This document shows positions 17,344 through 63,214 of a stretch of DNA of 64,000 nt, piece after piece. The stretch is taken from NCBI GenBank assembly GCA_030646915.1, contig JAUSKT010000012.1:4663-68662 (forward strand). Direction: 5' to 3'. Position 1 is the stretch's first letter; each line of letters starts with the position of its first letter. This DNA is from a bacterium. Its GTDB lineage: Bacteria; Patescibacteriota; Minisyncoccia; UBA6257; 02-FULL-45-10c. The position numbers were made by a program, and so were the translations under genes. Below the pieces are notes generated by a model, which saw nothing but the letters and a program-made list of their open reading frames with translations, was not told the origin of the DNA and searched no databases.

Positions 17344-18327
17344 TTATAGCTTCTGGCACTTTGGGCAAAAATGCGCAGAACGCCCACCCAACTTTACCCG
17401 AACGATAGCCGTTTTGCATCTTCGGCAAGGCTCATCCTCGCGCTGATAAACTAGACGATAATCCGCATATCCCCCCTCTTTTCCCGAAGTATCCCGATAA
17501 TCGCTATAAGAAGTGCCGCGCAATTTCAAGGCCTTTTCCAAAACTTTTCGTATTGCCTTATACAAACTTCCTAATTCCTGATTCCCCAACTTATTCGCCG
17601 GCTTGAATGGATGGATTTTCGCAGCCCATAAAATATCGTCAGAATAAATATTTCCGATTCCCGCAATAACTTCCGGATCCATTAAAACTTGCTTGATTTT
17701 GCGACGCTCGGACTTTATTAATTTTACAAACTCCGCGAATTTGAAACTTGGGTCTAATGGTTCCGGCCCCAAATTTTTTATCTCCGGCAAATTTTCAATC
17801 TGTTCTTTGGTGCCTAAAAGGGCTTTGGCAAATTTACGAAGATCAGAAAGCGCCAACATTGCACCATCATCCACCCCGTTAGAAGCCGCCCTCGCTTTTA
17901 GCGAGTGGCTACGGCCACCTTGGGGCGACCTGCTTCTAACGGGGTCAAGATAAAAAATTAAATGAATATATTGATTATAAGGATCCTCAACTACTTCTTT
18001 CGGCTCAAGCGGAATAGTTTTTTTGCCCACGACTTTCCACTTGCCAATTAGCAGATGCCCGGTCATTTTCAAATGAATCAGCAATAAAAAATCACCGCTT
18101 AAATAAATTAAAATATTTTTTGCCCGGCGGACTACTTTTAAAATTTTCTTTCCTTTAATTACTTTTTCAAAAATCGCCACGTGCTTATGGGCTATTTTAT
18201 TTTTCTGCTGGTCAAGCGGGTCTTTGAGCATTTTCGGCCAATCAAACCAAACGCCGACTATTCGTCGGCCAACTACTTTCTTATTCAGATCATTAACTAT
18301 GGTTTGTACTTCTGGAAGCTCTGGCAT
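17344..18327 (-). CDS. mutM: Formamidopyrimidine-DNA glycosylase (Fpg/MutM) with an in-frame repeat insertion
   Basis: N-terminal MPELPEVQT, H2TH region and C-terminal Zn finger CRRCKTAI...CPKCQ. A 23-codon GC-rich insert lies at 17875-17943. Confidence 0.9.
   Translation of the reverse strand: MPELPEVQTIVNDLNKKVVGRRIVGVWFDWPKMLKDPLDQQKNKIAHKHVAIFEKVIKGKKILKVVRRAKNILIYLSGDFLLLIHLKMTGHLLIGKWKVVGKKTIPLEPKEVVEDPYNQYIHLIFYLDPVRSRSPQGGRSHSLKARAASNGVDDGAMLALSDLRKFAKALLGTKEQIENLPEIKNLGPEPLDPSFKFAEFVKLIKSERRKIKQVLMDPEVIAGIGNIYSDDILWAAKIHPFKPANKLGNQELGSLYKAIRKVLEKALKLRGTSYSDYRDTSGKEGGYADYRLVYQREDEPCRRCKTAIVRVKLGGRSAHFCPKCQKL
17874..17944 (-). mobile_element. TIR element, short GC-rich form (71 nt), in frame inside mutM
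   Basis: ccccgttagaagc...gcttctaacgggg, translated as PVRSRSPQGGRSHSLKARAASNG. Flanks are TTGA/TGGA (gene sense). Confidence 0.75.
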
Positions 18328-21047: not shown

Positions 21048-21938
21048 TTACAATCTTTCAACTAATGATTTAAAACCCAATTCTTCAAAATATTTTTTAA
21101 GTCCATCTTTGTCTGGCGTCTCTTGTTTTAAATCGGCCAAAGTTAATTCTAATGGCACGTCCCGTTTTATCATTGCCAGTTTTTTTGATAAAAAAGCGCT
21201 TTCGCGGTTTTTTTCCAGTTTTTCTTGCAAAACTTTTTTTGGAATCAGACCGACTTCTTCATAAATTTTTTCCACTGATCCGTATTCCTTGATTAAATCT
21301 GTCGCGCCTTTCGGGCCAATGCCATTAACGCCAGGAATATTATCCGATACATCGCCGACTAAAGCTTTATAATCCACTAATTGTTCCGGTGAAAATCCGT
21401 ATTCCTGCAAAAATAAAACTTTATCATAAGAAATGGTCTTACTGACGCCGGTTCTTAAAAGCTCGACAATAACTTTATTATCATCAACCAATTGCAAATT
21501 ATCTTTGTCGCCAGAGAAAATGATAACTTTGAGTTCAAAGTTATCACCCTGAGCCCGCCGAAGGGTTCCCGAATCTTTAAACATTTCGGCTAAAGTTCCT
21601 ACAATATCATCTGCTTCAAAACCGGCTTTTTCCACCACTTTAATTCCAAATTTCTCAAAAGTATTGTGCGCTTCATGAAGCTGAGAAATCAATTCATTAG
21701 CAGTCGGCGGACGATGGGCTTTATATTCTTTATACATTTCCTTGCGAAAAGTCGGTTCTGGCCGGTCAAAGGCAGCGGCCGTATAATCCGGCTGATGTTC
21801 GCGCAAAATCTTTAAAAGAATGCTGGAAAGCCCATAAACTGCATTAATCGGTTCGCCCCTGGGAGTCGTCAGCGGCGGAAGCGCATGAAAAGAGCGGTGA
21901 ATCAAGGAGTTTGCGTCAATTAAAAGAAGTTTTTTCAT
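21048..21938 (-). CDS. 5'-3' exonuclease (FEN-like N-terminal domain of Pol I) as a separate ORF
   Basis: 296 aa with LLLIDANSLIHRSFHA, GFEADDIVGT and GDKDNLQL motifs plus an HhH region. Confidence 0.9.
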   Translation of the reverse strand: MKKLLLIDANSLIHRSFHALPPLTTPRGEPINAVYGLSSILLKILREHQPDYTAAAFDRPEPTFRKEMYKEYKAHRPPTANELISQLHEAHNTFEKFGIKVVEKAGFEADDIVGTLAEMFKDSGTLRRAQGDNFELKVIIFSGDKDNLQLVDDNKVIVELLRTGVSKTISYDKVLFLQEYGFSPEQLVDYKALVGDVSDNIPGVNGIGPKGATDLIKEYGSVEKIYEEVGLIPKKVLQEKLEKNRESAFLSKKLAMIKRDVPLELTLADLKQETPDKDGLKKYFEELGFKSLVERL

Positions 21939-22043
21939 CCCGTTTAGAAAATTAAAATAAGTGTCTTGCCGACTAAATACTTCCGATAGTGCTCTATAAA
22001 ATTTTTATTGCGATTAAACATGGTTATTAATTTTCTAACGGGA
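21938..22043 (-). mobile_element. TIR element, long subfamily A (106 nt), on the 5'-3' exonuclease start codon
   Basis: TIRs are intact and the TGAA duplication is at 21934-21937 and 22044-22047 (gene sense). A 34-codon internal frame starts at ATG 22046-22048, which overlaps the tsaE stop TGA. Confidence 0.85.
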
Positions 22044-22047
22044 TTCA

Positions 22048-22512
22048 TCACATTTCTATTATACGCTCTTTTTCGTTTTTGCCGTGCTTAAAATTAAGCA
22101 AAATCATATTTTTAGGCAAAATCTTTTTTGCTCTTTCCGGCCATTCAATTAAAACTATTACGCGCGGATCTTTAAGTATTTTTTTAAATCCTAAATCTAA
22201 AAGCTCTTTGGGCTTATTTATTCTGTATAAATCCAGATGATAAACATTAAAGAACATTTGACTTTTGACTTTTGACTTTTGACTTTTTAATTTATATTTC
22301 CTGCATATCACGAAGGTTGGGCTGGTAATCCGATTTTTCACGCCAAGCGCTTTCATAAAACCCTGCACGAAAGTAGTTTTCCCAGCGCCAAGTTCTCCGC
22401 GAAGAGCGACAATAGTAGCACCTCGTACTTGTTGTAAATGGCGAGCTTTTAATATTTTATTTACTAAGCCAACCGCTAACTTTTGAGTTTGGGTTTTGGA
22501 TTTACTTATCAT
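22048..22512 (-). CDS. tsaE: tRNA t6A biosynthesis ATPase TsaE (YjeE)
   Basis: 154 aa with the P-loop GELGAGKTTF and SPTF...YHLDLYRI. Contains a heptanucleotide tandem repeat at 22254-22288. Confidence 0.85.
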   Translation of the reverse strand: MISKSKTQTQKLAVGLVNKILKARHLQQVRGATIVALRGELGAGKTTFVQGFMKALGVKNRITSPTFVICRKYKLKSQKSKVKSQMFFNVYHLDLYRINKPKELLDLGFKKILKDPRVIVLIEWPERAKKILPKNMILLNFKHGKNEKERIIEM

Positions 22513-22534: not shown

Positions 22535-23173
22535 TTATTTTTTAACTTTTTTAAAGCGATCTTCCAGTTCTTTCAGCCGCCGTTCGTCAAATTTAAAACT
22601 TTTTAGGGCTTGAAGTCCGGCAGTTAGGCGCTTTACGGTTTTAGTTTTATTAATTGAATCGGGGTCAGAATATCTTAATAATTTCTCCTCATTTTCTGTT
22701 AATGGCACCAGCTCGCCTTTTTCCATTGTTTTTGATTTTTTTAAAAGCTCTAGAGTTTCCAATTCATACTGCAATTCTTGAAAAGAATGTTCTAGCGCCT
22801 TCAGCCAATTTTCTTTATAAATTTGATCCCATAATTTTCTTTTTGATTCAGAATCCAAATCGTCTTTGGCATCCAAAAATTCACGGATAGAATTTTCTAA
22901 TTCGGCTTGTTTTTGAAAATCATCCATTTCATATTCCTCAGGCTTTTCATCTCTCTTTTGCCCACTATCTAGAGAAAACATTTTTATAAATCCGTCTAAA
23001 TCTAAACCCAATAAAGAGTCTTTAAATTTCTCCATTTTTTTCATAGACATAGATTCTTTCTTCAATTCTTCCCTAACGAGTTCTGATTTTTTTTCTAAAA
23101 GCCCGCGCAATTTTGCTAACGGATCTTCTTTTTTATTTTGTTCCGGTAATGGAATCTGTTCTGGTGATGTCAT
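22535..23173 (-). CDS. Hypothetical coiled-coil protein
   Basis: 212-aa charged, helical ORF. Its start overlaps the ruvB stop. Confidence 0.45.
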   Translation of the reverse strand: MTSPEQIPLPEQNKKEDPLAKLRGLLEKKSELVREELKKESMSMKKMEKFKDSLLGLDLDGFIKMFSLDSGQKRDEKPEEYEMDDFQKQAELENSIREFLDAKDDLDSESKRKLWDQIYKENWLKALEHSFQELQYELETLELLKKSKTMEKGELVPLTENEEKLLRYSDPDSINKTKTVKRLTAGLQALKSFKFDERRLKELEDRFKKVKK

Positions 23174-24189
23174 AAAAGTCCGCCTTCATCTTTTTGTTTA
23201 ATTCCCAGGTGCTTATAAGCCGCTGGCGTAACCAAGCGCCCGGCCGGCGTACGGTTTAAAAGACCGATACTCATTAAATACGGCTCATAGACATCCTCAA
23301 TAATTCCCCGGTCATCATTAAGTGCTGCGGCTAAAGTCTGGATGCCCACTGGTCCGCCGCGGAATTTTTCAATAATAATAGTCAAAAGCTGTCGGTCGGT
23401 CGGCTCCAAGCCAAGATGATCAATTTCAAGCATTGCCATAGTTTCTTGGGCGGCTTCTTCAGTAACCTCTTTTAAATTATTAACCTCTGCATAATCCCGA
23501 ACCCGGCGCAAAATGCGATTGGCAACTCTCGGAGTAAATCGGGAGGCTTTGGCAATTATATTAACAGCCGAATCTGCAACTTTCATTCCTAAAAGCCTGG
23601 CTGATCGCCGGACAATTGCTTCAATATCAGCTACTTCGTAATAATCTAGCTTAAAAGAGGCGCCAAAACGGGAACGAAGCGGGCCGGAAAGTAAATTCGC
23701 GCGGGTCGTAGCGGCAATTAAAGTAAATGGTGGGAGGTCTAAGGATAGAGTTCGCGCGCCCGGACCCTTGCCAACTATCAAATGCAACTTTCTCGATTCC
23801 AGCGCTGGATATAAAACTTCTTCAATTTGGCGATTCAACCGATGCGCCTCGTCAATAAATAAAATCTCTCCTTTGTCTAAATTGCTTAAAATAGCGGCGA
23901 GATCTCCCATCTTTTCCATTGTCGGTCCGGAAGTAATTTTAAAGCTTGCGCCCATTTCTTTTGCCACTAAATGCGCCAATGTAGTTTTTCCTAAGCCCGC
24001 CTGGCCATAAAATAAAAGATGATCGGCTGGCTCGCTCCGTTTTTTGGCAGCATCCAAAATTACACGCAAGTTTTTCTTTACTTTTTCCTGTCCGACGTAA
24101 TCACCCCACTGGGTCGGTCGAAGCGCCAAATCAATGTGCGTGTCGTCTTCAGTTTTATCAGTTTTAGCTGTAATTTTCTTTAATTCCAT
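23170..24189 (-). CDS. ruvB: Holliday junction helicase RuvB
   Basis: Walker A GQAGLGKTT, Walker B LFIDEAHRL and a winged-helix C-terminus. The start is set at MELKKITAK (24189). The track start at 24246 lies inside the repeat element. Confidence 0.93.
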   Translation of the reverse strand: MELKKITAKTDKTEDDTHIDLALRPTQWGDYVGQEKVKKNLRVILDAAKKRSEPADHLLFYGQAGLGKTTLAHLVAKEMGASFKITSGPTMEKMGDLAAILSNLDKGEILFIDEAHRLNRQIEEVLYPALESRKLHLIVGKGPGARTLSLDLPPFTLIAATTRANLLSGPLRSRFGASFKLDYYEVADIEAIVRRSARLLGMKVADSAVNIIAKASRFTPRVANRILRRVRDYAEVNNLKEVTEEAAQETMAMLEIDHLGLEPTDRQLLTIIIEKFRGGPVGIQTLAAALNDDRGIIEDVYEPYLMSIGLLNRTPAGRLVTPAAYKHLGIKQKDEGGLL

Positions 24190-24297
24190 CCCGTTTAGAA
24201 AAATAAATAATAATATCTTGTAACTAAAAAGCTTCCTATAATGCAATTATAATATTTTGACTTATTTATTGATACGGCTGTTATTTTTCTAACGGGA
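24189..24297 (-). mobile_element. TIR element, long subfamily B (109 nt), on the ruvB start codon
   Basis: Ends tcccgttagaaaaataa...ttatttttctaaacggga, with the TGGA duplication at 24185-24188 and 24298-24301 (gene sense). A 35-codon internal frame ends at a TAA 5 nt before the ruvB ATG. Confidence 0.85.
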
Positions 24298-35709: not shown

Positions 35710-36777
35710 TTATTCTAAACTAAGGCTATAAAGCTTATTATCGTATCTGTTTTTAAAGAGCAGTTTTCCGCCAGCGAATTCTAGATGTTCAGCGTCAATT
35801 ATGATATCGGAATTTTCTAATAATAATTTTGAAGCCGCAGTGGCTAGGTTTATTTCATACAAATTATCGTCAAAATATACAGATTTTTTAAAATAATCAT
35901 CTGGTAAAAGCACCCCCTCTTTTATAAGTTTTGGAATGGCGCAATAAATTTTTTCCTTTTCCACCAAGCATTTGCTTGGAAGGGTAATAAAAGAAAGGTT
36001 GGTCAGATCATCCCCGGCTTTATTGATAATGCCAGTAACCGGAGAACGATTTTCATTGTGGTTTTTAATGCCGAATTCTCCATTTGGATACCACTTTATC
36101 CACAAACCGGATTGATTCTTTGTAACCGGAACCAGGCTTTTGGTAGACAGATTTAATGACCAGAGCGAAGAAGGTGTATCTGCGCTGGGGGTTTCATATA
36201 GAAGCAAGGTGTCGCCGGAAACCCAATTTAAAACCAAGTCTTTTTGGGTTAATTTTAAAACATCTCTGGTTTTTTGAGTGTCCGGATTAAAAATTTTTAA
36301 TCCCTTATCATCAAGATAAATTATTTCTTGGTTAGTCGGAGACCAATCCGCCGCTGAAATATTAGGCGGCAAAGCCTGCCAATTGTTAGTGGCGGTATTG
36401 AAAATACTGAAGCTGATTGCATCCGGATAATTTAATTTTACCAAAGCTAAAACCCCGCTATTGGAAGCTTTTAAATTATTAAATTTATTAATAGTTTGAG
36501 AATTTACCAATTCTTCTCCGCCAGAGCCAATCTTAATTACTTGCCCTAAGGGATTGAGGTAATAAATAAAATTATTTACCCGATTTACCCAATAATCAGA
36601 GATTTCATTATTAGATAAAAGTTTTAATTTTTGCGGAAGCTCGGTTGGCTGGGTATTTTCGGTATCTGGAGAAATCAGTTTTTTAAATAAATTTTGCCAA
36701 AGAAAATATCCTCCAACGAGTATTCCAAGCGTTATTAAAATTCCTAAACCAGTTTTTAAATATTTTTTCCAGTTCAT
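35710..36777 (-). CDS. Membrane-anchored beta-propeller-like protein (TolB/PD40-like), last gene of the T4SS-like cluster
   Basis: 355 aa with an N-terminal TM helix and a repetitive beta-strand-rich body. Confidence 0.45.
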   Translation of the reverse strand: MNWKKYLKTGLGILITLGILVGGYFLWQNLFKKLISPDTENTQPTELPQKLKLLSNNEISDYWVNRVNNFIYYLNPLGQVIKIGSGGEELVNSQTINKFNNLKASNSGVLALVKLNYPDAISFSIFNTATNNWQALPPNISAADWSPTNQEIIYLDDKGLKIFNPDTQKTRDVLKLTQKDLVLNWVSGDTLLLYETPSADTPSSLWSLNLSTKSLVPVTKNQSGLWIKWYPNGEFGIKNHNENRSPVTGIINKAGDDLTNLSFITLPSKCLVEKEKIYCAIPKLIKEGVLLPDDYFKKSVYFDDNLYEINLATAASKLLLENSDIIIDAEHLEFAGGKLLFKNRYDNKLYSLSLE

Positions 36778-36882
36778 CCCGTTTAGAAAATTAAAATAAA
36801 CGTCTTGTCGACTGAAGACTTCCGATACTGCTCTATAAAATTATTGCTATGTATAAACATATTTATTAATTTTCTAACGGGA
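36777..36882 (-). mobile_element. TIR element, long subfamily A (106 nt), on the start codon of 35710-36777
   Basis: TIRs are intact. Flanks are TGCA/TGAA (3 of 4 match). The internal frame encodes MHPVRKLINMFIHSNNFIEQYRKSSVDKTFILIF. Confidence 0.85.
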
Positions 36883-39148: not shown

Positions 39149-40864
39149 TTATCCCCTTTGTTCCAATATTTGTTCGGGCTTGGTGGTGACAATTTTATCT
39201 TCAAGATAAGAGGCTATAACTTGGATTGCCACATGATTTAATCCGGCAAAAAACAGCCCCTCCCCAATTTTTGCTTCCAAGAGAAGGCTTTTTTCTCCCT
39301 CGGTTAAATTAAAAGTTTTAGCAACCATATCAATCATTGCCGGGGCCTGTTTTAAAAGAAGCTGTAAAGATGAGTTGGTAATAATCGGCCGGCCATATGG
39401 AGATTTTAAGAAATCTTCCACATCTTGAGTAATAGTAGTTACGCCCATAAAATATTTCCGGCATCGTTTTACCAATCCAAATAAGAAAGTGGCGCCATCT
39501 TCATGTTTCATAATTACCCAAGCTTCATCAATAACCAGCACTCGTTTTTTAAGATTGGCGCGGATTAAGTTCCAGATGAAATTCAAAACAATATACATTG
39601 CAATCGGCCGGAGTTCGTCTTCCAGGTCTCGGATAGAAAAAACAATCAAACGATTTTTAATATCCACATTAGTCGGTTGATTGGTAAATCCTCCATAGCT
39701 GCCTTGGGTATATTTATATAATCTTTCCGCAAGTCCCCGCCCGCCCTCCATATTTTCCATAACTTTTTGGAGGTCTTCTAAAAGCGGAGGCGCGGCATTA
39801 GAAAAATCTTTTCCGGGAATAATATCGTGGGAAGCGTAAGTTTCTGAAAGCGCCCTGTCTAAAATCGCATCTTCTTCGGGAGTAATTTTTCCAAGCATTA
39901 TTTTTAAAAGTCCGGCTAAGTTTACGATATGGGAACGAAGAACATCACTAGGATCTTCGTCTGTAGGAATTATCGGAATATCAAAAGGATTGACGTGGTG
40001 ATCAGATGCTAAAGAAATTTTAAAATAGCTTCCGCCGACGGCGGCAGTAAGATTTTCATATTCATTTTCCGGATCAATAACAATGACATCTATTCCAAGC
40101 ATCAAAAGCCTTAAAATTTCCAGTTTAGTGGCATAAGATTTTCCACTTCCAGATTTGGCGAAAATCACCATATTGGCATTTTCTAAAGAAAATCGGTCGA
40201 AAATTACAAGCGTATTATTAAGCCGGTTAATGCCATACATAAGGCCGTCATTTGAAGTAAGTTCAGAGGAGGTAAAGGGAAAGACAGAAGAAAGCGGGCC
40301 GGAATTCAATGGTGAATGGATTAATAATTTATCTTGGCCGATAGGCAGAGTTGATCCAAAGCCTTCTAATTGTTGAAAAAGCGCCGGTTTGACATAGATC
40401 AGGCGGCTTTCGAGTAAAGAGGTTATTTTATTTTCTAATTTATGGAGAGCTTCTATAGTATCGGCATAAACAGTGATATAGACGCCGACATTAAATAAAT
40501 GTTCTCTTGATTGCTGTAAAGAATCCCGCAAAGATTCAATGTCTTGAAAGGCGGTTTCTAGCATAGGATCGCGCACCATTCCCTTCTCCTGCCTTTCAAT
40601 TACTTGAGATTCTACTTGAGCAGCCTTTTTACGGAGTCTTTTAAGGGCCATTGGCGTTTCTACTGGATGAATAAAGATGGAAATATCCAGAAGTTCCGGC
40701 ATATCAATAATTCCGGAAAACCAGCCAGTGGCCAAATATCTGGGATAAGTAAAAATGAAAATAGTTTTTACAAACTTATCTCCAAGTTTTAAATAATTGG
40801 AATTCACTTCCAGCGCCGGTGGCGCAATTGCATTGATTAAATTTTTATTTTGTTCTTCAGCCAT
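39149..40864 (-). CDS. virB4: VirB4/TrbE/PrgJ-type conjugation/T4SS ATPase
   Basis: 571 aa with Walker A AKSGSGKSY, Walker B VLVIDEAW and a C-terminal TTITQDVEDF region. Confidence 0.8.
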   Translation of the reverse strand: MAEEQNKNLINAIAPPALEVNSNYLKLGDKFVKTIFIFTYPRYLATGWFSGIIDMPELLDISIFIHPVETPMALKRLRKKAAQVESQVIERQEKGMVRDPMLETAFQDIESLRDSLQQSREHLFNVGVYITVYADTIEALHKLENKITSLLESRLIYVKPALFQQLEGFGSTLPIGQDKLLIHSPLNSGPLSSVFPFTSSELTSNDGLMYGINRLNNTLVIFDRFSLENANMVIFAKSGSGKSYATKLEILRLLMLGIDVIVIDPENEYENLTAAVGGSYFKISLASDHHVNPFDIPIIPTDEDPSDVLRSHIVNLAGLLKIMLGKITPEEDAILDRALSETYASHDIIPGKDFSNAAPPLLEDLQKVMENMEGGRGLAERLYKYTQGSYGGFTNQPTNVDIKNRLIVFSIRDLEDELRPIAMYIVLNFIWNLIRANLKKRVLVIDEAWVIMKHEDGATFLFGLVKRCRKYFMGVTTITQDVEDFLKSPYGRPIITNSSLQLLLKQAPAMIDMVAKTFNLTEGEKSLLLEAKIGEGLFFAGLNHVAIQVIASYLEDKIVTTKPEQILEQRG

Positions 40865-40968
40865 CCCGTTAGAAAATTAAATTAAACATCTTGCCGACTA
40901 AAGACTTCCGATATTGCTCTATAAAATTTTGGTTTAGTTTAAACATATTTATTAATTTTCTAACGGGA
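40864..40968 (-). mobile_element. TIR element, long subfamily A (105 nt), on the virB4 start codon; supplies the stop codon of the upstream gene
   Basis: TIRs are intact and no flanking duplication is seen. The TAG of ORF 40960-41631 (40960-40962) lies inside the element terminus cccgTTAGaaaa. Confidence 0.85.
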
Positions 40969-41645: not shown

Positions 41646-42161
41646 TTATCTATAGTCTACTCTTTTAGCTATTTCCCTTTCTCCGGTGATTTTCCGCATC
41701 ATTTCAAAGCGTTCCTTGCTGCTTTTTTCTCGGTCAGTGATTGCTGGGGCGAAAGCTTTTTCTCTTTTTGGAACCGGCTGTTTGCTGGTTTTTAATTGAT
41801 CCCAAAGATTATCAAGCAGCGATTTCGCCTGAGTTATTTTAAATCCGCCGGTTTTTAATTTCGGTTCAGCTATTTTGGGAGCAGCCTCCCTTCTCCAGAG
41901 ATAAAATCTTGGCTTCCAATAAAAATTAAAAGCCGCAAACACGATTATTGATAATGGCCGCCCATTTACTTTTATAAAGGCAAAAGATAAAGAAATAACA
42001 GCCAATACGAAAGTTATTAATATCCAAAGCCAGAGCTGTAAAAAGAAGAAAAGAAAAAAACTTATTCCGCCCGCAGTTGCAACGTATAAAAACTGCTTCA
42101 GGGTAAGCGGTCCAATAATCCTGTCTTCGGTTTCTATAAATTGCGGGACTTGAAAGTTCAT
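41646..42161 (-). CDS. PrgI/VirB3-like membrane protein
   Basis: 171 aa with an N-terminal VPQFIETEDRIIGPLTLKQF followed by two TM helices, the PrgI family pattern. Confidence 0.6.
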   Translation of the reverse strand: MNFQVPQFIETEDRIIGPLTLKQFLYVATAGGISFFLFFFLQLWLWILITFVLAVISLSFAFIKVNGRPLSIIVFAAFNFYWKPRFYLWRREAAPKIAEPKLKTGGFKITQAKSLLDNLWDQLKTSKQPVPKREKAFAPAITDREKSSKERFEMMRKITGEREIAKRVDYR

Positions 42162-42268
42162 CCCGTTAGAAAAATAAATTATAACGCCTTACGACTAACA
42201 GGTTTTCTATAATGCAATTATAAAATTTTGAATTATCTTTACACATGATTGTTATTTTTCTAACGGGA
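42161..42268 (-). mobile_element. TIR element, long subfamily B (108 nt), on the start codon of 41646-42161
   Basis: TGAA duplication on both sides. The internal frame encodes MNPVRKITIMCKDNSKFYNCIIENLLVVRRYNLFF and ends at a TAA 4 nt before the ATG. Confidence 0.85.
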
Positions 42269-42272
42269 TTCA

Positions 42273-42301
42273 TCCCTTCGTTAGTATTGTCTCTAACGGG
42301 A
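42273..42301 (-). mobile_element. 29-nt stub of a TIR element in tandem with the previous copy
   Basis: Gene sense reads tcccgttagagacaatactaacgaaggga between two further ATGAAT repeats. It is 9 codons long and in frame with the downstream element frame. Confidence 0.6.
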
Positions 42302-42305
42302 TTCA

Positions 42306-43220
42306 TTATTTATTTTTTAAATCAATAATGTTATCGCCTGATTTTTCGAATTTCCGCAAATCAATCCTGTTTTGATCCGCGGGATTTTTTGGCGTTCCAA
42401 TATTAGTAATTGGGGTTCTTGGGCCGCTGTAGTGAACTACTCTAGCAGCCGGATTATTTTCGGGTGTTTCCAGTCTTACTGATACTGCCTTAGAAGCAGA
42501 TTTTTTTTCTTCAGAAGCCGGCCGCGAATAGTTTTGAATTTTAATAGAAAGATCCGGCCTAGCATTAAAAGTTGGCTTAGGGGAAGAAACTTCTGTTTCT
42601 TGATGTAAGATAAATGGAGAAGATGGCGCTTCCAAAGATTGGAGATCAATTTTAGCTTCCTCTTTTTTAGGAGCAAGAGATGGCTCTAAAAAATCTTTAA
42701 ATGATTTTTGTACGCTAGCTTGTCCTAGTGATGAGGCTGGTCCCGTTAGAGACTCCGCCCGCGCTTGCGCGCCCGAAGGGCCTATGGGGCGGGCTGTCTC
42801 TAACGGGATGGCTGCTGATTGTGTCGCTGGTTCAGTTGCAGGTTTTTGCGCGGCAGAAGCTGATCCTGGCTTGCCAAAATAAATTAATTTTACATCCACG
42901 CCAACATCCCGCCTTAATTCATTTTCAATTGGTTTTAAAATTTTATTTTCAATATCTTCGGCGATGGATTTTGCGGTTGTAAAACTAACCATAAGTTCGT
43001 GACTTAGGGCATTTATAAACTCCGTAGGTTCAATATCTTGGGTTACAAGCCTAAATATTAGCTTCGGTATAATTATTCCCCGTTCATTCTTTATTCCCAG
43101 TCTTTGGTTTATTTCAGTAACTAGATAAGTAGTTTGTAGGGAAGAAAGCCGCTCTTTAACGTTTGGGGGCAATGACTCAAATGCAGCCCCCAAATTTTTA
43201 AATTCTTTAGTGTCGTCCAT
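42306..43220 (-). CDS. Hypothetical protein with Ala/Ser/Pro-rich linker (T4SS-like cluster), carrying an in-frame repeat insertion
   Basis: 304-aa ORF. A 22-codon GC-rich insert lies at 42742-42807. Confidence 0.5.
   Translation of the reverse strand: MDDTKEFKNLGAAFESLPPNVKERLSSLQTTYLVTEINQRLGIKNERGIIIPKLIFRLVTQDIEPTEFINALSHELMVSFTTAKSIAEDIENKILKPIENELRRDVGVDVKLIYFGKPGSASAAQKPATEPATQSAAIPLETARPIGPSGAQARAESLTGPASSLGQASVQKSFKDFLEPSLAPKKEEAKIDLQSLEAPSSPFILHQETEVSSPKPTFNARPDLSIKIQNYSRPASEEKKSASKAVSVRLETPENNPAARVVHYSGPRTPITNIGTPKNPADQNRIDLRKFEKSGDNIIDLKNK
42741..42808 (-). mobile_element. TIR element, short GC-rich form (68 nt), in frame inside 42306-43220
   Basis: tcccgttagagac...gtctctaacggga with a TGG duplication. 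It is read in a different frame from the other intragenic copies (IPLETARPIGPSGAQARAESLTG). Confidence 0.75.
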
Positions 43221-47700: not shown

Positions 47701-48543
47701 TTATCGGAAAATATTAGCCAGAGACTTTATTTGTTCCAGTGATAAATTTTGCGGACGATCTAGGGGGTTGATATTCAGAAATTGCAGGCTTTTTTTAATA
47801 TCTTCTTCTTTGGTTTTAAGACCAGTCCTAAGGTTATTAAAGATTGTTTTTCTCGGTTGTTTAAAAAGAATGTGGATTAATTTGTAGTAATTTTGCTGTA
47901 GTTGTCTGTGGTTATTTGTAGTTGTTTGTGGTTTTGTCGTTAGTTTAATTACTGCAGAATCTACTTCCGGCGGCGGATTAAAATCCGCCGGTTTTAAGCT
48001 AAAAAGTATTTTAGGTTCTGCCCAGAATTGGACAGCAGCTGCCAGCAGATTCATCCCGTTAGAGGCAGAGGCGCGCTGCGGGCCCTCGCGGCCTCTAACG
48101 GGATTCATTCTCCGGGGTTGGGAAACAATTCTTTCCGCAACTTCTTTTTGAATCATTAAAACAGAAATATTAGGCTTATTATTTAATTCACTTAAAACCC
48201 TTAGCAGTTTACCGGTAATATAGTAGGGAATGTTTCCTACAAGTTTAAAACTTGAAGAATCAAGTTTAAAGCAAATTTTTGACAATTCTTTTAGGGCATC
48301 TCCGTGGATAACTTCTATTTTTTCTTCATGTTTAATAAGTTTTACCGCAAGATCTCGGTCTTTTTCAATTGCAATTAATTTGCAGCCAACCTTTTTACAT
48401 TCTTCTAAAAGCGGAAAAGTCAGCGCTCCATCGCCTGGACCAATTTCAATAATTGTTTCTCCGGATTTTAAATCTAAATCAGCAATTATTTTTTTAATTG
48501 CAGATTTATTTGTAAGAAAATGCTGGCCTAATTGTTTATTCAT
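47701..48543 (-). CDS. rsmA: 16S rRNA (adenine1518/1519-N6)-dimethyltransferase RsmA/KsgA with an in-frame repeat insertion
   Basis: 280 aa with LGQHFL, the SAM motif EIGPGDGALT and NIPYYIT. An 18-codon insertion lies at 48049-48102. Confidence 0.9.
   Translation of the reverse strand: MNKQLGQHFLTNKSAIKKIIADLDLKSGETIIEIGPGDGALTFPLLEECKKVGCKLIAIEKDRDLAVKLIKHEEKIEVIHGDALKELSKICFKLDSSSFKLVGNIPYYITGKLLRVLSELNNKPNISVLMIQKEVAERIVSQPRRMNPVRGREGPQRASASNGMNLLAAAVQFWAEPKILFSLKPADFNPPPEVDSAVIKLTTKPQTTTNNHRQLQQNYYKLIHILFKQPRKTIFNNLRTGLKTKEEDIKKSLQFLNINPLDRPQNLSLEQIKSLANIFR
48054..48103 (-). mobile_element. TIR element, short GC-rich form (50 nt), in frame inside rsmA
   Basis: Flanked by the direct repeat ATGAAT (gene sense; 48049-48054 and 48103-48108). 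Translated as PVRGREGPQRASASNG. Confidence 0.85.
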
Positions 48544-48665
48544 CCCGTTAGAGACAGGTCATCTTTAGATGACCGTAACTCGGCCGCCTAAACGACTCCT
48601 GACGATTAATTATTGATTCTGATTTTATATATATATTAAACATAGTTTAGTTGTCTCTAACGGGA
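48543..48665 (-). mobile_element. TIR element, long subfamily C (123 nt), on the rsmA start codon
   Basis: Ends tcccgttagagac...gtctctaacggga with TGAA duplications. The internal frame has an early TAA at codon 8, then an in-frame ATG leading to the terminal TAA. Confidence 0.85.
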
Positions 48666-55758: not shown

Positions 55759-55881
55759 TCCCGTTAGAGACAACCAAACTATGTTTTATATATATCCAAA
55801 ATTTGAATCAATAATTAATAATCAGAAGTCAGTTAGGTGGCCGAGTTACGGTCATCTAAAGATGACCTGTCTCTAACGGGA
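55759..55881 (+). mobile_element. TIR element, long subfamily C (123 nt), on the comM start codon
   Basis: TGAA duplications at 55755-55758 and 55882-55885. The upstream ATG (55754-55756) overlaps the dksA-like stop TAA. The internal frame is 40 codons (MNPVRDNQTMFYIYPKFESIINNQKSVRWPSYGHLKMTCL). Confidence 0.88.
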
Positions 55882-57416
55882 TGAATCTTTCTAAAGTTTT
55901 TTCCGCCTCAATTGATGGCATTGAGGCTAAATTAATTGAAATTGAGACCGACGTTCACGTCGGTCTTCATAGTTTTAATATCGTCGGGCTGGCGGATAAA
56001 TCTTTATCAGAAGCAAAGGAGCGGGTCAGTTCAGCTTTGAAAAATAGCGGAGTAAAGCCGCCGACTAAAGAAAATCGGAAAATCGTGGTAAATCTTGCTC
56101 CGGCAGATTTAAAGAAAACCGGATCGCATTATGATTTGGGAATTGCAGTCGGCTATCTTTTGGCGACAAAACAAATAAAAGAATTTAATGCAAAAGATAA
56201 AATTTTTGTTGGAGAATTAGCGCTGGATGGCTCGCTTCGCCCGATTGGCGGAGTTTTGAATATTTCCCGCATGGCAGAGAAAGAAAAATTTAAAGAAGTT
56301 TTTGTGCCAAAAGAAAATGGAGTGGAAGCGGCGATTGTTGAGGGTGTAAAAGTTTTTCCTGTGAATAATTTATTGGAATTAATAAATCATTTAGAAAATC
56401 GGACTTTGATAAAACAGCAGCCAAAAACAGAAATTGAGCCGTCAATATCTTCCGAGCATAATTTAGTGGATATTTCTGATATCAAGGGCCAGGAAAATGC
56501 TAAGCGCGCTTTAATGATTGCTGCAGCCGGCGGGCATAATCTTTTAATGCAAGGAACGCCAGGCGCCGGTAAAACCATGCTTGCCCAAGCCTTGAATTCA
56601 ATTCTGCCCCCTCCGGATCTGGATGAAATTATGGAAATTACTCAAATCTACAGCGCGGCCGGACTTTTAAAAAATAATTCTTTTATTAATTGGCGCCCAT
56701 TTCGGGCTCCGCATCAGACCGCGTCTCCTGTCGCGGTTTTCGGCGGCGGGCAGAATCCGCGCCCCGGAGAAATCAGCTTGGCGCACCGGGGAATTTTATT
56801 TCTGGATGAACTTCCGGAATTCCGGAGAGATTTATTGGAATCCCTCCGCCAGCCGCTAGAAAGCGGGAAAGCAGTAATTTCCAGAATAAAAAATAATTTA
56901 GTTTTTCCAGCTAAGTTTACATTAGTAGCGGCAATGAATCCCTGCCCTTGCGGATATTATGGAGACGAAGAAAAAGACTGCAAATGTTCTGCGTTTGAAG
57001 TTTTCCGTTATCAAAAGAAAGTTTCCGGCCCGCTTTTAGACAGGATTGATTTGCAGATTAATGTGCCTCGGGTAAAAATAGAACATTTGCAGAATAAAAC
57101 TAGGGATGAAAAATCTGCCAATGAAATGCGGAAAAAAGTGGCAAATACCCGGAATATCCAAAAGGCCAGGTTGAAGAAATTTAAGATTTTAACTAACTCA
57201 GAAATGAGTTCCAAGATGTGTGATGAAATGATTGAACTTAATAAGGAAGCGGATAAATTCTTAAAAGATATTTTTGAAAAATCTTTAATTTCTGCCCGCG
57301 GTTATTACCGGATTTTAAAAACCGCCCAGACAATCGCTGATTTGGAAGAAGTTAAAAATGTGGATGTTGGGCATTTAGCTGAAGCATTTCAATATCGTTT
57401 AAGGGAGAATAGCTAA
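55881..57416 (+). CDS. comM: YifB/ComM Mg-chelatase-like AAA+ ATPase
   Basis: 511 aa with a Lon-protease-like N-domain, Walker A GTPGAGKT and Walker B LFLDELPEF. Confidence 0.9.
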   Translation: MNLSKVFSASIDGIEAKLIEIETDVHVGLHSFNIVGLADKSLSEAKERVSSALKNSGVKPPTKENRKIVVNLAPADLKKTGSHYDLGIAVGYLLATKQIKEFNAKDKIFVGELALDGSLRPIGGVLNISRMAEKEKFKEVFVPKENGVEAAIVEGVKVFPVNNLLELINHLENRTLIKQQPKTEIEPSISSEHNLVDISDIKGQENAKRALMIAAAGGHNLLMQGTPGAGKTMLAQALNSILPPPDLDEIMEITQIYSAAGLLKNNSFINWRPFRAPHQTASPVAVFGGGQNPRPGEISLAHRGILFLDELPEFRRDLLESLRQPLESGKAVISRIKNNLVFPAKFTLVAAMNPCPCGYYGDEEKDCKCSAFEVFRYQKKVSGPLLDRIDLQINVPRVKIEHLQNKTRDEKSANEMRKKVANTRNIQKARLKKFKILTNSEMSSKMCDEMIELNKEADKFLKDIFEKSLISARGYYRILKTAQTIADLEEVKNVDVGHLAEAFQYRLRENS

Positions 57417-57467: not shown

Positions 57468-58544
57468 TTATGGGACGAGGCTGCTGAGAACTTTTTTAAG
57501 TCCGTTATAGGAAGTGCTTAGTACTAATTTGTCTCCAGACCAAACTATATTGAGTCCGGCGCCTTTTTTGGAATAGGTTAAATAACGAGTTGAAAGCCCG
57601 TTTAATTGTCCAGTTTTAAATCCGCTTGCACTTGGCGTTCCGGGAGAAGTTAGAAAAAGATTCTGGAGATTTGTAGAGGTTTCTAAAATAGTTGAGAAAG
57701 TCTGGCCGTCTGCAAGATTTGCATTAGGAGCAAGTTTTAAAATATAGGCCGGCCAAACACCATCTTGGTCGTAAAAAAGTCCAGTAGTAAAGTCTTCGCC
57801 AAAAAGGCTTTTTATATTATCCATGGATAATTCTGGAAAAACAGCCGATAAAAATTTGGAAGCATCTAGCGGGCCGTTGGCATCGCTTAAAGAAACCTCT
57901 ATCAAATTTCCAGAAGGATTGGATTTTTGGGCTTCTTGATTTAAAGCGTTAGTTAAAGATGTTAAGTCGGAACTCGCTAAATTTACTTCAACTGCGCTAT
58001 CTGAAGATTGCAAAAGAGATTGGTGAATGCGCCCCTCATTTTCCGTTGTTGCGACTGGAACCTCTGGGGTTTCTGTAGTTGTTGGCGGAGTTACGGCTGG
58101 GGGTGGGGGCGGAGTTTGTGTTGGAAAAAGCATTGGAAAGAGTACAAAGTAGCTTAGCAGTCCAACTCCAACCGCAACAACAACTACCCCTCCCCAAAGT
58201 AAAAGCTTTTTTCCTCTTCCACTGGCAGCCGGCTCTTCTTCAATAACTGGCGCCATTTCTTTTTCCATTTCTGCCTTTAGATTTTCTCTTGGAGAGCCAA
58301 AATCAGCAGGAGTAATTTTAGGCGGCGGCGGAGGCGGGGTTGTTGGCGCGGACCATTCTTTTTTTAGTTCCGGAGGAGTAAATGGTTTTGGCGCCGGGCC
58401 AGATCCGCCGGTTTCTTTTAGGGATTCCAAATCAGACTTCATAGTTCGAAGCGTAATTTCTGGAGGAGGTGGAGGCAGAGGCATAGTCGGCCGTCCGCCA
58501 GGTGGCGGAGGAAAACTAGATGGCTGCGGATTTAAATCATCCAT
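57468..58544 (-). CDS. Hypothetical proline-rich single-pass membrane protein
   Basis: 358 aa with PPPPP tracts, one TM helix and an extracytoplasmic C-terminal domain. Confidence 0.55.
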   Translation of the reverse strand: MDDLNPQPSSFPPPPGGRPTMPLPPPPPEITLRTMKSDLESLKETGGSGPAPKPFTPPELKKEWSAPTTPPPPPPKITPADFGSPRENLKAEMEKEMAPVIEEEPAASGRGKKLLLWGGVVVVAVGVGLLSYFVLFPMLFPTQTPPPPPAVTPPTTTETPEVPVATTENEGRIHQSLLQSSDSAVEVNLASSDLTSLTNALNQEAQKSNPSGNLIEVSLSDANGPLDASKFLSAVFPELSMDNIKSLFGEDFTTGLFYDQDGVWPAYILKLAPNANLADGQTFSTILETSTNLQNLFLTSPGTPSASGFKTGQLNGLSTRYLTYSKKGAGLNIVWSGDKLVLSTSYNGLKKVLSSLVP

Positions 58545-58649
58545 CCCGTTTAGAAAATTAAATTAAACGTCTTGCCGACTGAAGACTTCCGATAATGCTC
58601 TTTAAGACAATTTAGTACTATAATCATATTTGTTAATTTTCTAACGGGA
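58544..58649 (-). mobile_element. TIR element, long subfamily A (106 nt), on the start codon of 57468-58544
   Basis: TGGA duplications on both sides (ATGGAT/ATGGAT). The internal frame encodes MDPVRKLTNMIIVLNCLKEHYRKSSVGKTFNLIF. Confidence 0.88.
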
Positions 58650-60939: not shown

Positions 60940-61437
60940 TTTCTTTAATAATATTTTTGGCAATTTTTCCAAATCAATGAATTCATCCGCCGCTTCTTTT
61001 ATTTTTCCGGATCCGCTTCTTCCGAAAGCCGCTACCTCCACCGTTCTGCCCATTCCCCATTTTAGATATTCCACTAACGGGACAAAATCTCCGTCGCCAG
61101 TTACTAAAATTACTACATCTAAAAGATTAGACATTCGGATTGCGTCTACTGCCATGCCGACATCCCAATCAGCTTTTTTCATTCCGCCTGGATAAATTTG
61201 AAGATCCTTACTGCGAAGTTCTAATCCGGCTTTTTCCAGGGCGTCAAAAAATTCCGCTTCTCCTTTGGCGGTATCGCTTTTTACTACATAGGCCATGGCG
61301 ATTACAAGCTGCCGGCCGCTCACAAGCTCTTTCATCAATTCTTTATAATTGACCCGAGCGTGATATAAATTTTTAGAAGAGTGGTAAAGATTTTGAATAT
61401 CAACAAATATTCCCACTCTCTGATCTTTTCGTTTCAT
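60937..61437 (-). CDS. NYN/LabA-like domain protein
   Basis: VGIFVDIQNLYHS...VILVTGDGDFVPLVEYL. The start is set at MKRKDQ (61437) rather than the track position 61479. Confidence 0.7.
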   Translation of the reverse strand: MKRKDQRVGIFVDIQNLYHSSKNLYHARVNYKELMKELVSGRQLVIAMAYVVKSDTAKGEAEFFDALEKAGLELRSKDLQIYPGGMKKADWDVGMAVDAIRMSNLLDVVILVTGDGDFVPLVEYLKWGMGRTVEVAAFGRSGSGKIKEAADEFIDLEKLPKILLKK

Positions 61438-62263: not shown

Positions 62264-63214
62264 ATGGCAGCCATTGAAAAATCCTTAAAAGACTACTTAG
62301 ATTATCTGGAAATTGAAAAAAACCGTTCGCCGAAGACGCGAGAAAATTATGAACGATATTTAAAAGCCTTTATTGATTTTTCTAGAATTAAAAAACCGGA
62401 AGATATTACAATGGAGACGGTGAAAGAATTCCGGATATGGTTAGCGCGCAGTCCCGTTAGAGGCCGCGAGGGCTCGAAGCGCGCCTCTGCCTCTAACGGG
62501 ATAAAAAAAGTTACCCAGACTTATTACGCCATTGCCATCCGGAATTTTTTAAAATACTTGATTAAAAACGATTTTGAAGTTTTGTCTCCGGATAAAATTG
62601 AATTGCCGAAAATTCCCCGCCGGCAGATAGATATTATTGAATACGCGGATTTGGAAAGGTTTTTAAGCGCGCCGGCGCAAAATACTTTGCGCGGACTTAG
62701 AGACAGAGCTATCCTGGAAATGTTTTTTTCCACCGGACTCCGGATTTCCGAACTTTGCAATTTAGATAGGTATATTAATTTGGATAGAGGAGAAATCACG
62801 GTAAGAGGCAAGGGCGAAAAATTGCGGGTGGTTTTTCTTTCAGATCGGGCAAGAGCGGCTATAAAAAATTATCTGGATAAAAGAAGTGATACCACAGAAC
62901 ATTTATTTATCAGCCTTTCCAAGCAAACTTCTCCATTGAAAGAGCCGAAAGTTATTGGAAAAATCACTTCGCGAGCAGTCCAGCGGTTGGTAGAATTTTA
63001 CCGGCGGAAAGCTGGCATCGCCAAAAAAATAACTCCGCATCAGATCCGCCATCAGTTCGCGACTGATTTATTAATAAATGGCGCAGACCTCCGCTCGGTG
63101 CAGGAGCTTCTTGGCCATAGCAATATTTCCACCACTCAAATTTATACCCACATTACTAATAAAGAACTTCGGGAAATTCATAAATCTTTCCACGCAGCCA
63201 GGCGGAGAAAATAA
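62264..63214 (+). CDS. XerC/XerD-type tyrosine recombinase with an in-frame repeat insertion
   Basis: 316 aa with an N-terminal SAM-like domain (LEIEKNRSPKTRENYERYL) and catalytic R...HQIRH...LLGH...Y residues. A 16-codon insert lies at 62453-62500. Confidence 0.88.
   Translation: MAAIEKSLKDYLDYLEIEKNRSPKTRENYERYLKAFIDFSRIKKPEDITMETVKEFRIWLARSPVRGREGSKRASASNGIKKVTQTYYAIAIRNFLKYLIKNDFEVLSPDKIELPKIPRRQIDIIEYADLERFLSAPAQNTLRGLRDRAILEMFFSTGLRISELCNLDRYINLDRGEITVRGKGEKLRVVFLSDRARAAIKNYLDKRSDTTEHLFISLSKQTSPLKEPKVIGKITSRAVQRLVEFYRRKAGIAKKITPHQIRHQFATDLLINGADLRSVQELLGHSNISTTQIYTHITNKELREIHKSFHAARRRK
62452..62501 (+). mobile_element. TIR element, short GC-rich form (50 nt), in frame inside the Xer recombinase gene
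   Basis: 46 of 48 core positions are identical to the rsmA copy, in the same orientation and frame (PVRGREGSKRASASNG). No flanking duplication is recognisable. Confidence 0.8.

Follow-up and report, generated by a model that had tools for sequence, protein, structure and literature searches.

The 64,000-nucleotide (nt) stretch of DNA analyzed here, referred to as the window, originates from a bacterium of the Patescibacteriota (contig JAUSKT010000012.1, positions 4,663 to 68,662) and carries on its minus strand genes of a type IV secretion system (T4SS) operon, in which two short inserts lie between prgI and the gene upstream of it. The prgI gene (41646 to 42161) encodes a 171-amino-acid (aa) PrgI-family T4SS protein (PF12666) that is 100% identical to NCBI entry MDO8430016.1 from a metagenome-assembled genome (MAG), and its start at position 42161 is confirmed by approximately 120 PrgI homologues of 164 to 181 aa that begin with MNF/MQFQVPQFIE. 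The upstream T4SS-operon gene (42306 to 43220; 304 aa) ends with a TAA stop codon (42306 to 42308) whose last A is at the same time the A of an ATG (42306 to 42304), in the arrangement TAATG. Read on the minus strand from 42308 to 42156, the junction consists of TA, a first ATGAAT repeat (42301 to 42306), which represents the original start-codon copy and keeps the stop/start overlap with the upstream gene, a 27-nt stub (42274 to 42300), a second ATGAAT repeat (42268 to 42273) forming the junction common to both elements, a 106-nt element (42162 to 42267), and a third repeat, ATGAAC (42156 to 42161), with the true start of prgI. In letters, this is TA-ATGAAT-CCCGTTAGAGACAATACTAACGAAGGG-ATGAAT-CCCGTTAGAAAAATAAC…GTTATAATTTATTTTTCTAACGGG-ATGAAC. 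We consider it likely that the inserts arose by two independent insertions, at the ATGAA of prgI, of non-autonomous members of a Patescibacteria-wide mobile family that resemble MITEs (miniature transposable elements with inverted repeats).

The stub comprises nine codons without a stop and is in frame; together with one repeat it accounts for 33 nt, or 11 codons. A single 46-codon open reading frame (ORF; 42166 to 42306, minus strand) runs from the first ATG through both elements and ends with a TAA (42168 to 42166) in the right terminus of the 106-nt element, 4 nt (CGGG) before the prgI ATG. This frame reads MNPVRDNTNEG-MNPVRKITIMCKDNSKFYNCIIENLLVVRRYNLFF up to the TAA, and its 46-aa translation is MNPVRDNTNEGMNPVRKITIMCKDNSKFYNCIIENLLVVRRYNLFF. 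The ends of the 106-nt element are 16-nt inverted repeats (CCCGTTAGAAAAATAA / TTATTTTTCTAACGGG) and form an 18-bp terminal stem (AUCCCGUUAGAAAAAUAA/UUAUUUUUCUAACGGGAU). An earlier note, made by inspection of the sequence, had described this layout of repeats, stub and core, the overlap of the upstream TAA with the first ATG, and the single frame that ends 4 nt before the real start; this description proved correct to the base.

Both inserts belong to a family of repeats dispersed through the window. The 16-nt terminus, searched with up to 3 mismatches, occurred 21 times compared with 2.64 expected occurrences, a count reached in none of 100 shuffled sequences. Pairing of the termini yielded 16 elements bounded by (AT)CCCGTTAGA…TCTAACGGG(AT): eight AT-rich elements of 103 to 107 nt (six of subfamily A and two of subfamily B, the latter including the 106-nt insert at prgI, which is 80% identical to the copy at 24190 to 24296), two 121-nt elements whose ends are of the GAGACA type, three GC-rich hairpins of 48 nt, two further GC-rich elements of 66 and 69 nt, and the 27-nt stub. 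The stem formed by the termini is 18 bp long, and subfamilies A and B differ in it by one compensatory change. All ten long copies have the same orientation relative to the downstream gene and directly abut its ATG, and nine of them show the pattern ATGNAT-element-ATGNAN, the exception being the copy at 40865 to 40967, which has no upstream ATG. Peptides predicted from the window elements gave no Pfam match.

Comparison with orthologous operons revealed that the prgI junction is empty in relatives. In operons of Candidatus Harrisonbacteria and other Paceibacteria, whose PrgI proteins are 77 to 60% identical, the upstream gene overlaps or abuts the prgI ATG with no insert in between, as at the uninterrupted junctions '…tttttaagaa ATGAACTTCCAG' and '…ggaaaaaaca ATGAATTTTCAA' of loci L002 and L003, respectively. 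When metagenomes were scanned with a degenerate pattern for the N-terminal part of prgI, 11 loci beyond the L002/L003 relatives were obtained, of which nine had no insert, one had a single different element (L205), and one had a remnant (L209). In four of the nine insert-free loci (L199, L201, L204, and L206) the same upstream gene extends to the prgI ATG, and together with L002 and L003 these make six prgI loci with the same upstream gene and an empty ATGAAY site; in the other five (L200, L202, L203, L207, and L208) the upstream context is different or less clear. The empty ATGAAY of the relatives corresponds to ATGAAT…ATGAAC at prgI in the window. At L205 the prgI start codon carries an A-like element, and at L209 it carries a decayed palindrome within which the upstream gene ends (…ESR followed by a stop). 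The start codon of prgI has been struck independently in other lineages. The earlier note had proposed comparing this junction in relatives for intermediates with 0, 1, or 2 inserts; the comparison supplied empty sites and a single different element, but no relative close enough to serve as a direct intermediate. As a separate observation, the L205 element (2010 to 2206; JGI Ga0210057_1000360) has the left flank ATTCAT, the inverted complement of its right flank ATGAAT; this lengthens the palindrome to 15 nt, and ATGAAT is itself nearly palindromic.

The stub carries both terminal motifs, has the same ATGAAT flank as its neighbor, and is damaged at its right end (CTAACGAAGGG), as might be expected of a local by-product of the 106-nt element left by replication slippage, by partial tandem duplication of its end, or as an excision footprint. 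However, the left arm of the stub is identical over the first 14 of 14 nt to the 121-nt subfamily (48544 to 48664 and 55760 to 55880) and has only the universal 9 nt in common with the adjacent subfamily-B core, positions 10 to 14 being GACAA as in the 121-nt subfamily and AAAAT in the core. Since the left arm matches a different subfamily, the two inserts are independent events, and the stub is not a slipped copy of the B core. Independent short forms flanked by ATGAAT at other loci argue in the same direction: L032 carries a 27-nt form between ATGAAT and ATGAAT, and further minimal forms measure 23 nt (L060) and 24 nt (L061, L104, and L107). We therefore regard an origin of the stub from its neighbor as very unlikely. 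The stub is rather a minimal end-to-end remnant of a GAGACA-type element whose right arm is degenerate (CTAACG-AA-GGG); it may have been deleted in situ from a longer element of this type and would still represent a separate insertion. A candidate case of in situ shortening is L057 versus L080 (38 versus 57 nt with similar flanks), but the similarity stops approximately 60 nt upstream and 20 nt downstream, so that the loci may not be orthologous.

Even less probable, in our judgment, is that the tandem is an assembly artefact, be it a chimeric join or a mis-resolved repeat. The source is a metagenome-assembled genome in which the repeat recurs approximately every 4 kb, and this would favor such an error. 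However, the two inserts differ in sequence, their common stretch of approximately 15 nt (ATGAATCCCGTTAGA) is presumably shorter than the k-mers commonly used in assembly, the gene order on either side is collinear with that of the operon in relatives, and analogous tandems exist in independent assemblies. Collectively, the empty ATGAAY sites in relatives and the derivation of the stub from another subfamily support the claim of the earlier note that one start codon received a tandem double insertion.

The family extends far beyond the window. We scanned one genome per species for ATGNATCCCGTTAGA, a 14-mer for which our own arithmetic predicts approximately 4,000 chance matches in 596 Gb, and obtained at least 119 loci. 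The matches listed come overwhelmingly from Patescibacteria of many classes, among them Saccharibacteria, Paceibacterota, and Kaiser-, Wolfe-, Nomura-, Yanofsky-, Kerfeld-, and Levyibacteria, and a few are labelled Omnitrophota or Planctomycetota. In nearly all of the listed matches from Patescibacteria, the motif opens an element of 23 to 196 nt (mode, 115 to 120 nt) that closes with TCTAACGGG followed by ATGRA. Across the listed loci the interiors of the elements are highly diverse and only the termini are common. A published description of such a family was not found in a literature search whose coverage of subscription journals was incomplete, so that an earlier description is possible; apparently, the family of start-codon elements across Patescibacteria is undescribed so far. 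Short elements that have these termini and are flanked by ATGAAT were also seen in MAGs not labelled as members of the Candidate Phyla Radiation, namely L057, L078, and L080 (Planctomycetota) and L060 and L081 (Omnitrophota), and true elements made up 9 of 69 pattern matches in viral contigs of IMG/VR (e.g., loci L144, L146, L154, L173, and L193). Such occurrences could reflect real spread, phage carriage, or mis-binning.

To define the insertion site, we compared the flanks of 108 ATG-flanked copies collected with a pattern that fixed the left flank only and left the right flank free. The fourth base was the same on both sides in 104 of them (A-A in 81, G-G in 22, and C-C in 1), with 4 discordant copies. 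Position 5 of the right flank was A in 97%, position 6 was free, nothing was conserved 5′ of the first ATG, and the fourth base of the target was A in approximately 75 to 79% and G in approximately 20%. Because the flanks co-vary and position 5 is A, the pre-insertion site is ATG-R-A, of which at least position 4 is duplicated. The family accordingly inserts at ATG-R-A, duplicates part of this motif, and regenerates the target on both sides. The preference for TGAA in an ATG context put forward in the earlier note is real as far as the ATG context is concerned, but the target is not strictly TGAA, given that five window copies sit at ATGGA.

Because each insertion leaves a renewed target on either side, a start codon already occupied could receive a second element. 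Tandems indeed recur at other loci, with elements of 115 and 117 nt at L111 and of 100 and 116 nt at L028, and L025 (5893 to 6290) carries a triple array with four ATGAAT repeats, whose middle element has the termini CCCGTAGTAG…TCACTACGGG, which suggests related families with the same target. The earlier note had taken the re-targeting of a duplicated copy as an argument for a preferred site. In the window, approximately 22 to 24 genes start with ATGRA and approximately 10 of these are occupied; by our own estimate, Poisson re-use would produce roughly 2 doubles where we see one. The tandem alone is therefore weak evidence, since chance re-use predicts as many doubles, and the family-wide data carry the argument. 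The window contains 325 ATGRA pentamers on both strands, approximately 7% of them at gene starts, and yet 10 of the 11 ATGRAT-flanked insertions are found at gene starts, the eleventh (48055 to 48102) lying in frame in ksgA. Sequence preference must thus be supplemented by selection or by a requirement of the element itself for a start codon. Since nearly every other ATGRA in this compact genome lies inside a gene, purifying selection would be a sufficient filter, and the restriction to gene starts probably reflects selection.

The termini also fit the reading frames of the host. In the left end (ATGAATCCCGTTAGA) the ATG frame is free of stops and the other two contain TGA and TAG, so that an upstream gene overlapping the start codon stops at once, as seen at 40865 to 40967 (…EESR) and at L209. 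At the right end (TCTAACGGGATGA), one frame reaches a TAA that lies 4 nt ahead of the ATG, another a TGA that overlaps it, and the third runs on into the host gene as an in-frame fusion. Of the 108 copies, the TAA serves as the stop in 31 and the overlapping TGA in 12, 11 are in-frame fusions, and 54 are stopped earlier. Of the elements of 90 to 135 nt, 34 of 78 have an open ATG frame compared with 7.1 expected by shuffling, and in the window 8 of 9 do so compared with 0.4 expected; for subfamily A in the window, the joint probability of six stop-free copies is approximately 0.012 in a rough test that treats the copies as independent. Among copies with a recognizable sub-terminal hairpin, 24 are in sense and 5 in antisense orientation, with no open frame among the latter. 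Such figures speak for selection favoring through-translation as well as stop and restart at the host ATG, though not in every lineage. The element would take over the translation signals of its host, with the upstream ATG copy opening a frame through the left terminus (MNPVR…). At prgI, ribosomes arriving from the upstream gene through TAATG would translate the 46-codon ORF across both elements, stop at its TAA, and re-initiate 4 nt further on (TAA-CGGG-ATG), so that termination-reinitiation would feed prgI and the layout could keep the host gene translatable. A Shine-Dalgarno motif in the right end was considered and dismissed, as a Shine-Dalgarno-like tetramer lies 4 to 17 nt before the second ATG in only 8 of 108 copies.

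Part of this evidence might suggest that the repeats are host cis-regulatory leader peptides or upstream ORF hairpins that gate translation and are kept for their function rather than as selfish DNA. The terminal hairpin beside the start codon is strong (−42.6 kcal/mol; z = −4.95), open upstream frames are in excess, and the orientation in the window is consistently sense. Such a role is nevertheless hard to reconcile with presence and absence at orthologous junctions, with sites before unrelated genes and inside coding regions, and with several subfamilies, nested and tandem copies, duplicated flanks, and nuclease-coding relatives. Moreover, the Rfam covariance models at gathering score gave no match to the elements and recovered only two tRNAs in the window, and there are only 1 or 2 compensatory pairs, all in the termini. 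We thus give a regulatory origin very little credence and return to mobile elements.

The nuclease-coding relatives are full-length members of approximately 275 to 285 bp (L022, L091, and L123) that have the same inverted termini and a single 85-aa ORF, in frame with the upstream host ATG and reading MNPVRDNPS-MFYTYVIENKNKQWYTG…KRFLSLTG before its stop. The L022 and L091 ORFs match PF01541 (GIY-YIG) with E values of 1e-17 and 2e-15, respectively; the third element, L123, has an N-terminal frameshift. The nuclease is of the UPF0213/YhbQ type, its closest solved structure being 1zg2 (E value of 8.5e-9), and it scores 19.8 bits against the I-TevI-type model TIGR01453, whose cut-off is 56. The coding ends coincide with the termini: the extended frame opens with five codons made up of ATGAAT and the left terminus, and the final codons (…CTC TCT CTA ACG GGA TGA) are the right terminus, with the TGA overlapping the regenerated host ATG. 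The nuclease family comprises more than 5,650 clusters; among the best 120 of these, 102 end in LSLTG, approximately 26 have an M[NSG]P[VA]R extension in the called protein, and those that are named belong to Patescibacteria. The positions of the GIY-YIG motif are conserved, and purifying selection acts on the nuclease across thousands of clusters. Public GIY-YIG entries of 94 to 95 aa likewise carry an MNPVR extension from the host start codon. A 4-nt overlap with ruvX was seen for one nuclease copy in many samples; P0227, considered as a sign of recent transposition, was always found before ruvX, which represents one genome in many samples and no evidence of transposition.

Traces of this mini-gene persist in the miniature copies. 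In the 106-nt element at prgI, codon 10 of the element's own frame is still an in-frame ATG, the position at which the GIY-YIG protein starts in the full-length relatives, and 8 of the 10 long window copies have an in-frame ATG at codon 10 followed by TTT, TGT, or ATT, the copy at 55760 still reading MFYIY. Elsewhere, the coding tail TTTCCTATCTCTAACGGG is kept in 22 of 99 MITE-sized copies. Because the codon-10 ATG and the TTTCCTATCTCTAACGGG tail persist, the window elements are best read as deletion derivatives of the nuclease mini-gene. Since nothing else is present in the long elements and the termini form the ends of their coding sequence, the most economical reading is that the GIY-YIG nuclease mobilises the miniature copies in trans, a role that we infer from this arrangement.

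Alternatively, the repeats could be ordinary MITEs moved by a conventional transposase encoded elsewhere, of the DDE or IS200/IS605-like type, in which case the GIY-YIG gene would be a passenger or a host gene in decay. The known role of GIY-YIG proteins is that of nucleases and not of transposases, and in a review of transposable-element classes they appear only under homing endonucleases and the eukaryotic Penelope-like elements (PMC5718144). The window, furthermore, has no GIY-YIG gene but does have a tyrosine recombinase (62264 to 63214). In contrast, the full-length elements hold only the GIY-YIG ORF, whose first and last codons are the termini (MNPVR at the start and LSLTG in the 102 of 120 at the end), and the purifying selection does not suit a passenger. 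The co-varying flanks disfavor an IS200/IS605 mode, which makes no duplication, and a screen of terminus pairs of up to 330 nt in approximately 1.4 Mb of fetched loci found no transposase gene bounded by the termini. Movement by a conventional transposase thus seems unlikely to us, and we prefer mobilisation by the nuclease.

Two geometries of insertion fit the flanks equally well. In the first, 5 bp (ATGNA) would be duplicated around an element T-CCCG…CGGG; in the second, a symmetric element AT-CCCG…CGGG-AT would be flanked by a 2-bp duplication of GN inside AT/GN/A(T), slashes marking the cuts. GIY-YIG nucleases leave 2-nt 3′ overhangs, which the second geometry would fit, and each insertion would then create a perfect new ATGNAT on its left; cleavage may possibly occur with a 2-nt stagger across G-N of AT/GN/AT. 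Individual copies point either way: L025 (ATGAGT…ATGAGA) favors the 5-bp duplication, and L054, L086, and L109, with A at position 5 on the left and G on the right, favor 2 bp with AT belonging to the element. The copy at 40865 to 40967 fits neither model. Taken furthest, the data might indicate an unrecognised class of prokaryotic DNA transposon, an interpretation that we offer as tentative and rather doubtful. The 85-aa nuclease would be its putative transposase, recognizing the inverted termini, cutting the pseudo-palindromic AT/GN/AT with a 2-nt stagger, and inserting on start codons; the element would be translated from host initiation signals and would return the ribosomes through a terminus harmless in all three frames. 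After wide colonisation, its miniatures would hold a large share of the eligible start codons of Patescibacteria, with shorter forms residing in frame in proteins.

Several observations weigh against two insertions of a mobile family with these properties. The scan pattern contained ATGNAT and was biased towards start-codon copies, so that the unbiased support for location at start codons is confined to the window and to secondary copies contained in fetched loci. A search of the 64-kb window by tblastn for a full-length GIY-YIG copy gave only chance-level matches; one of these, 'EYLKWGMGR' at 61045 to 61071, was dismissed as it lies inside an NYN-domain gene. The window copies are 70 to 94% identical and may be old and no longer mobile. 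For the junction itself, the databases contained no series leading from 0 through 1 to 2 insertions, the nearest PrgI relatives being 77 to 70% identical. The length of the duplication ranges from 2 to 5 bp among the models that fit, and some copies have no duplication, namely the one at 40865 to 40967, short GC-rich forms with GT…AT or AC…GT flanks, and L205 (ATTCAT…ATGAAT). Finally, with half of the copies (54 of 108) stopping early in the upstream frame, coupling is not universal, and Shine-Dalgarno-like motifs are rare on the two sides (11 of 108 and 8 of 108).

The other long copies in the window repeat the arrangement seen at prgI. Those of subfamily A on the minus strand lie at 1947 to 2050 (ATGGAT…ATGGAC, before the gene at 195 to 1946), at 21939 to 22042 (ATGAAT…ATGAAA, before the gene at 21048 to 21938, with an upstream TGA stop that overlaps the first ATG), at 36778 to 36881 (ATGCAT…ATGAAC, before the gene at 35710 to 36777), and at 58545 to 58648 (ATGGAT…ATGGAT, before the gene at 57468 to 58544); another, on the plus strand, occupies 35026 to 35129 (ATGGAT…ATGGAC, before the gene at 35130 to 35555). 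The sixth, a 103-nt copy on the minus strand (40865 to 40967), directly precedes the ATG of a virB4-like gene (39149 to 40864). The TraC-like gene upstream of it ends …GGEESR with the TAG of CCCGTTAG in the left terminus, and the gene upstream of prgI at L209 (around 100 to 122, minus-strand numbering) likewise ends …DESR in the decayed palindrome; evidently, host genes can use the terminus of an element as a stop codon. The second subfamily-B copy (24190 to 24296, minus strand) is flanked by ATGGAT…ATGGAA. Both 121-nt GAGACA-type copies have ATGAAT…ATGAAT flanks; one (48544 to 48664, minus strand) lies before ksgA (47701 to 48543) and has an early TAA followed by an in-frame ATG, and the other (55760 to 55880, plus strand) lies before the gene at 55881 to 57416 and has an open ORF (…MFYIY…). 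ORF calling is misled by such copies: the gene called at 23170 to 24246 starts at a TTG inside the element at 24190 to 24296, and spurious ORFs of 34 to 46 aa are called.

The short GC-rich copies are mostly intragenic. A 48-nt hairpin with ATGAAT on both sides (48055 to 48102, minus strand) sits at an internal Met-Asn of ksgA, to which it adds 54 nt, or 18 codons, in frame. A 69-nt copy with AC…GT flanks (17875 to 17943) is in frame inside fpg/mutM (ORF 17344 to 18327), a 48-nt hairpin (62453 to 62500) is in frame inside the XerC/D-like integrase gene (62264 to 63214), and a 66-nt copy (42742 to 42807, minus strand; IPLETARPIGPSGAQARAESLTG) is in frame in a variable linker of the 304-aa T4SS gene upstream of prgI. 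The lengths of these four copies are all multiples of 3. The remaining 48-nt hairpin lies in the 5′ region of rpsT (15370 to 15417). At L042 (4712 to 4773) and L050 (3309 to 3357), short GC-rich elements are nested within the sub-terminal 3′ hairpin of longer ones; these are flanked by GT…AC or GT…AT, and 'ACTTGT' recurs on one side, as it does at window position 15370. The short GC-rich forms may prefer a different target.

Two other kinds of repeat were noted. In L003, a Harrisonbacteria relative, 17-nt palindromes CCCATTAGACTAATAGG lie directly 3′ of two T4SS-operon genes (10531 to 10547 and 13303 to 13319) and resemble a minimal, diverged version of the family termini. Intergenic tandem heptamer-like repeats of the CTTTTGA and CTTTAGA types are located just 5′ of genes in the window (683 to 722, 6606 to 6638, 13254 to 13286, 20706 to 20745, and 22254 to 22301) and also upstream of prgI in L203, L207, and L208, the one in L207 consisting of four CTAACAG units facing AGCTTTT repeats; they bear no relation to the terminus family.

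As such, the locus is a modest curiosity, and its value lies in exposing a phylum-wide, start-codon-seeking family with a GIY-YIG mini-gene that is apparently undescribed. If the proposed role of the nuclease is correct, thousands of genes of Patescibacteria annotated as 'GIY-YIG nuclease family protein' would be selfish parasites of start codons and not repair enzymes, and the full-length element would be the smallest autonomous DNA element of such a kind and a candidate from which a very small sequence-directed nuclease might be obtained. It would also illustrate a route for selfish DNA in packed genomes of approximately 1 Mb, in which an element takes its seat on a start codon, borrows initiation, and either stops and restarts translation or fuses in frame. 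In practical terms, gene callers are misled in the window into spurious short ORFs, wrong starts, and N-terminal MNPVR extensions, and presence or absence at start codons would serve as a fine strain marker for uncultured lineages. The in-frame copies in ksgA, fpg, and the integrase gene would be a source of protein variation comparable to the Rickettsia palindromic elements (RPEs).

Among known systems, free-standing GIY-YIG homing endonuclease genes, such as the seg genes of phage T4 and the I-TevI family, are similar in being small selfish nuclease genes that sit between host genes and do little harm. Homing endonucleases recognize long sites in one cognate gene, and their insertion destroys the site. 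The motif found here has 5 nt, precedes hundreds of unrelated genes, and is regenerated twice; only ATGRA is conserved in the flanks, with no long gene-specific site being disrupted. In further contrast to homing endonuclease genes, this family has inverted termini and miniature derivatives and its protein is of the UPF0213/YhbQ and not the I-TevI type, although GIY-YIG is a recognized class of homing endonucleases (PMC5718144). The two prgI inserts are non-coding remnants, and only the full-length relatives encode the nuclease. The IS200/IS605 elements and their miniatures, the palindrome-associated transposable elements (PATEs), are alike in inserting beside a specific motif of 4 to 5 nt, in their hairpin-forming ends, and in having small derivatives. 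Target duplications and terminal inverted repeats are not known from IS200/IS605 elements, which use an HUH transposase, and the PATEs derived from them insert 3′ of a fixed tetra- or pentanucleotide and have sub-terminal hairpins. The present elements differ from PATEs in that their flanks co-vary, being duplicated, and their ends are perfect inverted repeats.

The mycobacterial interspersed repetitive units (MIRUs; Supply et al. 1997) are reportedly intergenic operon repeats with short ORFs that overlap or abut the flanking stop and start codons, suggesting translational coupling. The ORF described here likewise abuts its neighbors (TAATG on the 5′ side and TAA-CGGG-ATG on the 3′ side), a functional resemblance read from the sequence only. 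MIRUs are direct tandem units of 46 to 101 bp without terminal inverted repeats. The units at prgI, in contrast, have inverted termini and are unrelated to each other internally, and MIRUs are not known to have a start-codon duplication or a nuclease-coding relative. As summarized in a review of MITEs, RPEs are palindromic selfish repeats tolerated in frame inside genes (Ogata et al. 2000/2002; PMC10969869). The 48-, 66-, and 69-nt copies that lie in frame in ksgA, fpg, the XerC/D-like integrase gene, and the T4SS gene resemble RPEs as summarized there, and so does the in-frame 27-nt stub, whereas the 106-nt core ends its frame with a TAA. The present family is set apart from RPEs by taxon and apparently by sequence and termini, and most of its long copies sit on start codons and are not intragenic. 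RPEs are not known to have an autonomous partner.

A further parallel is provided by bacterial MITEs, such as the Correia elements of Neisseria, ERIC, and RUP. Two features distinguish the present family from them: its longer partner encodes a GIY-YIG nuclease and no known transposase, and its target is the start codon motif ATGRA, with orientation and frame tied to the downstream gene; start codons are not mentioned in the MITE review (PMC10969869). In their structure, the elements otherwise resemble MITEs. They are small (27 to 121 nt here), lack a transposase ORF, have terminal inverted repeats and duplicated flanks, occur in many dispersed copies (16 in 64 kb) that fall into subfamilies, and have termini in common with a longer coding element. 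At the prgI locus itself, the inserts are short, bear terminal inverted repeats (degenerate in the right arm of the stub), are flanked by a target-site duplication, and belong to a multicopy family.

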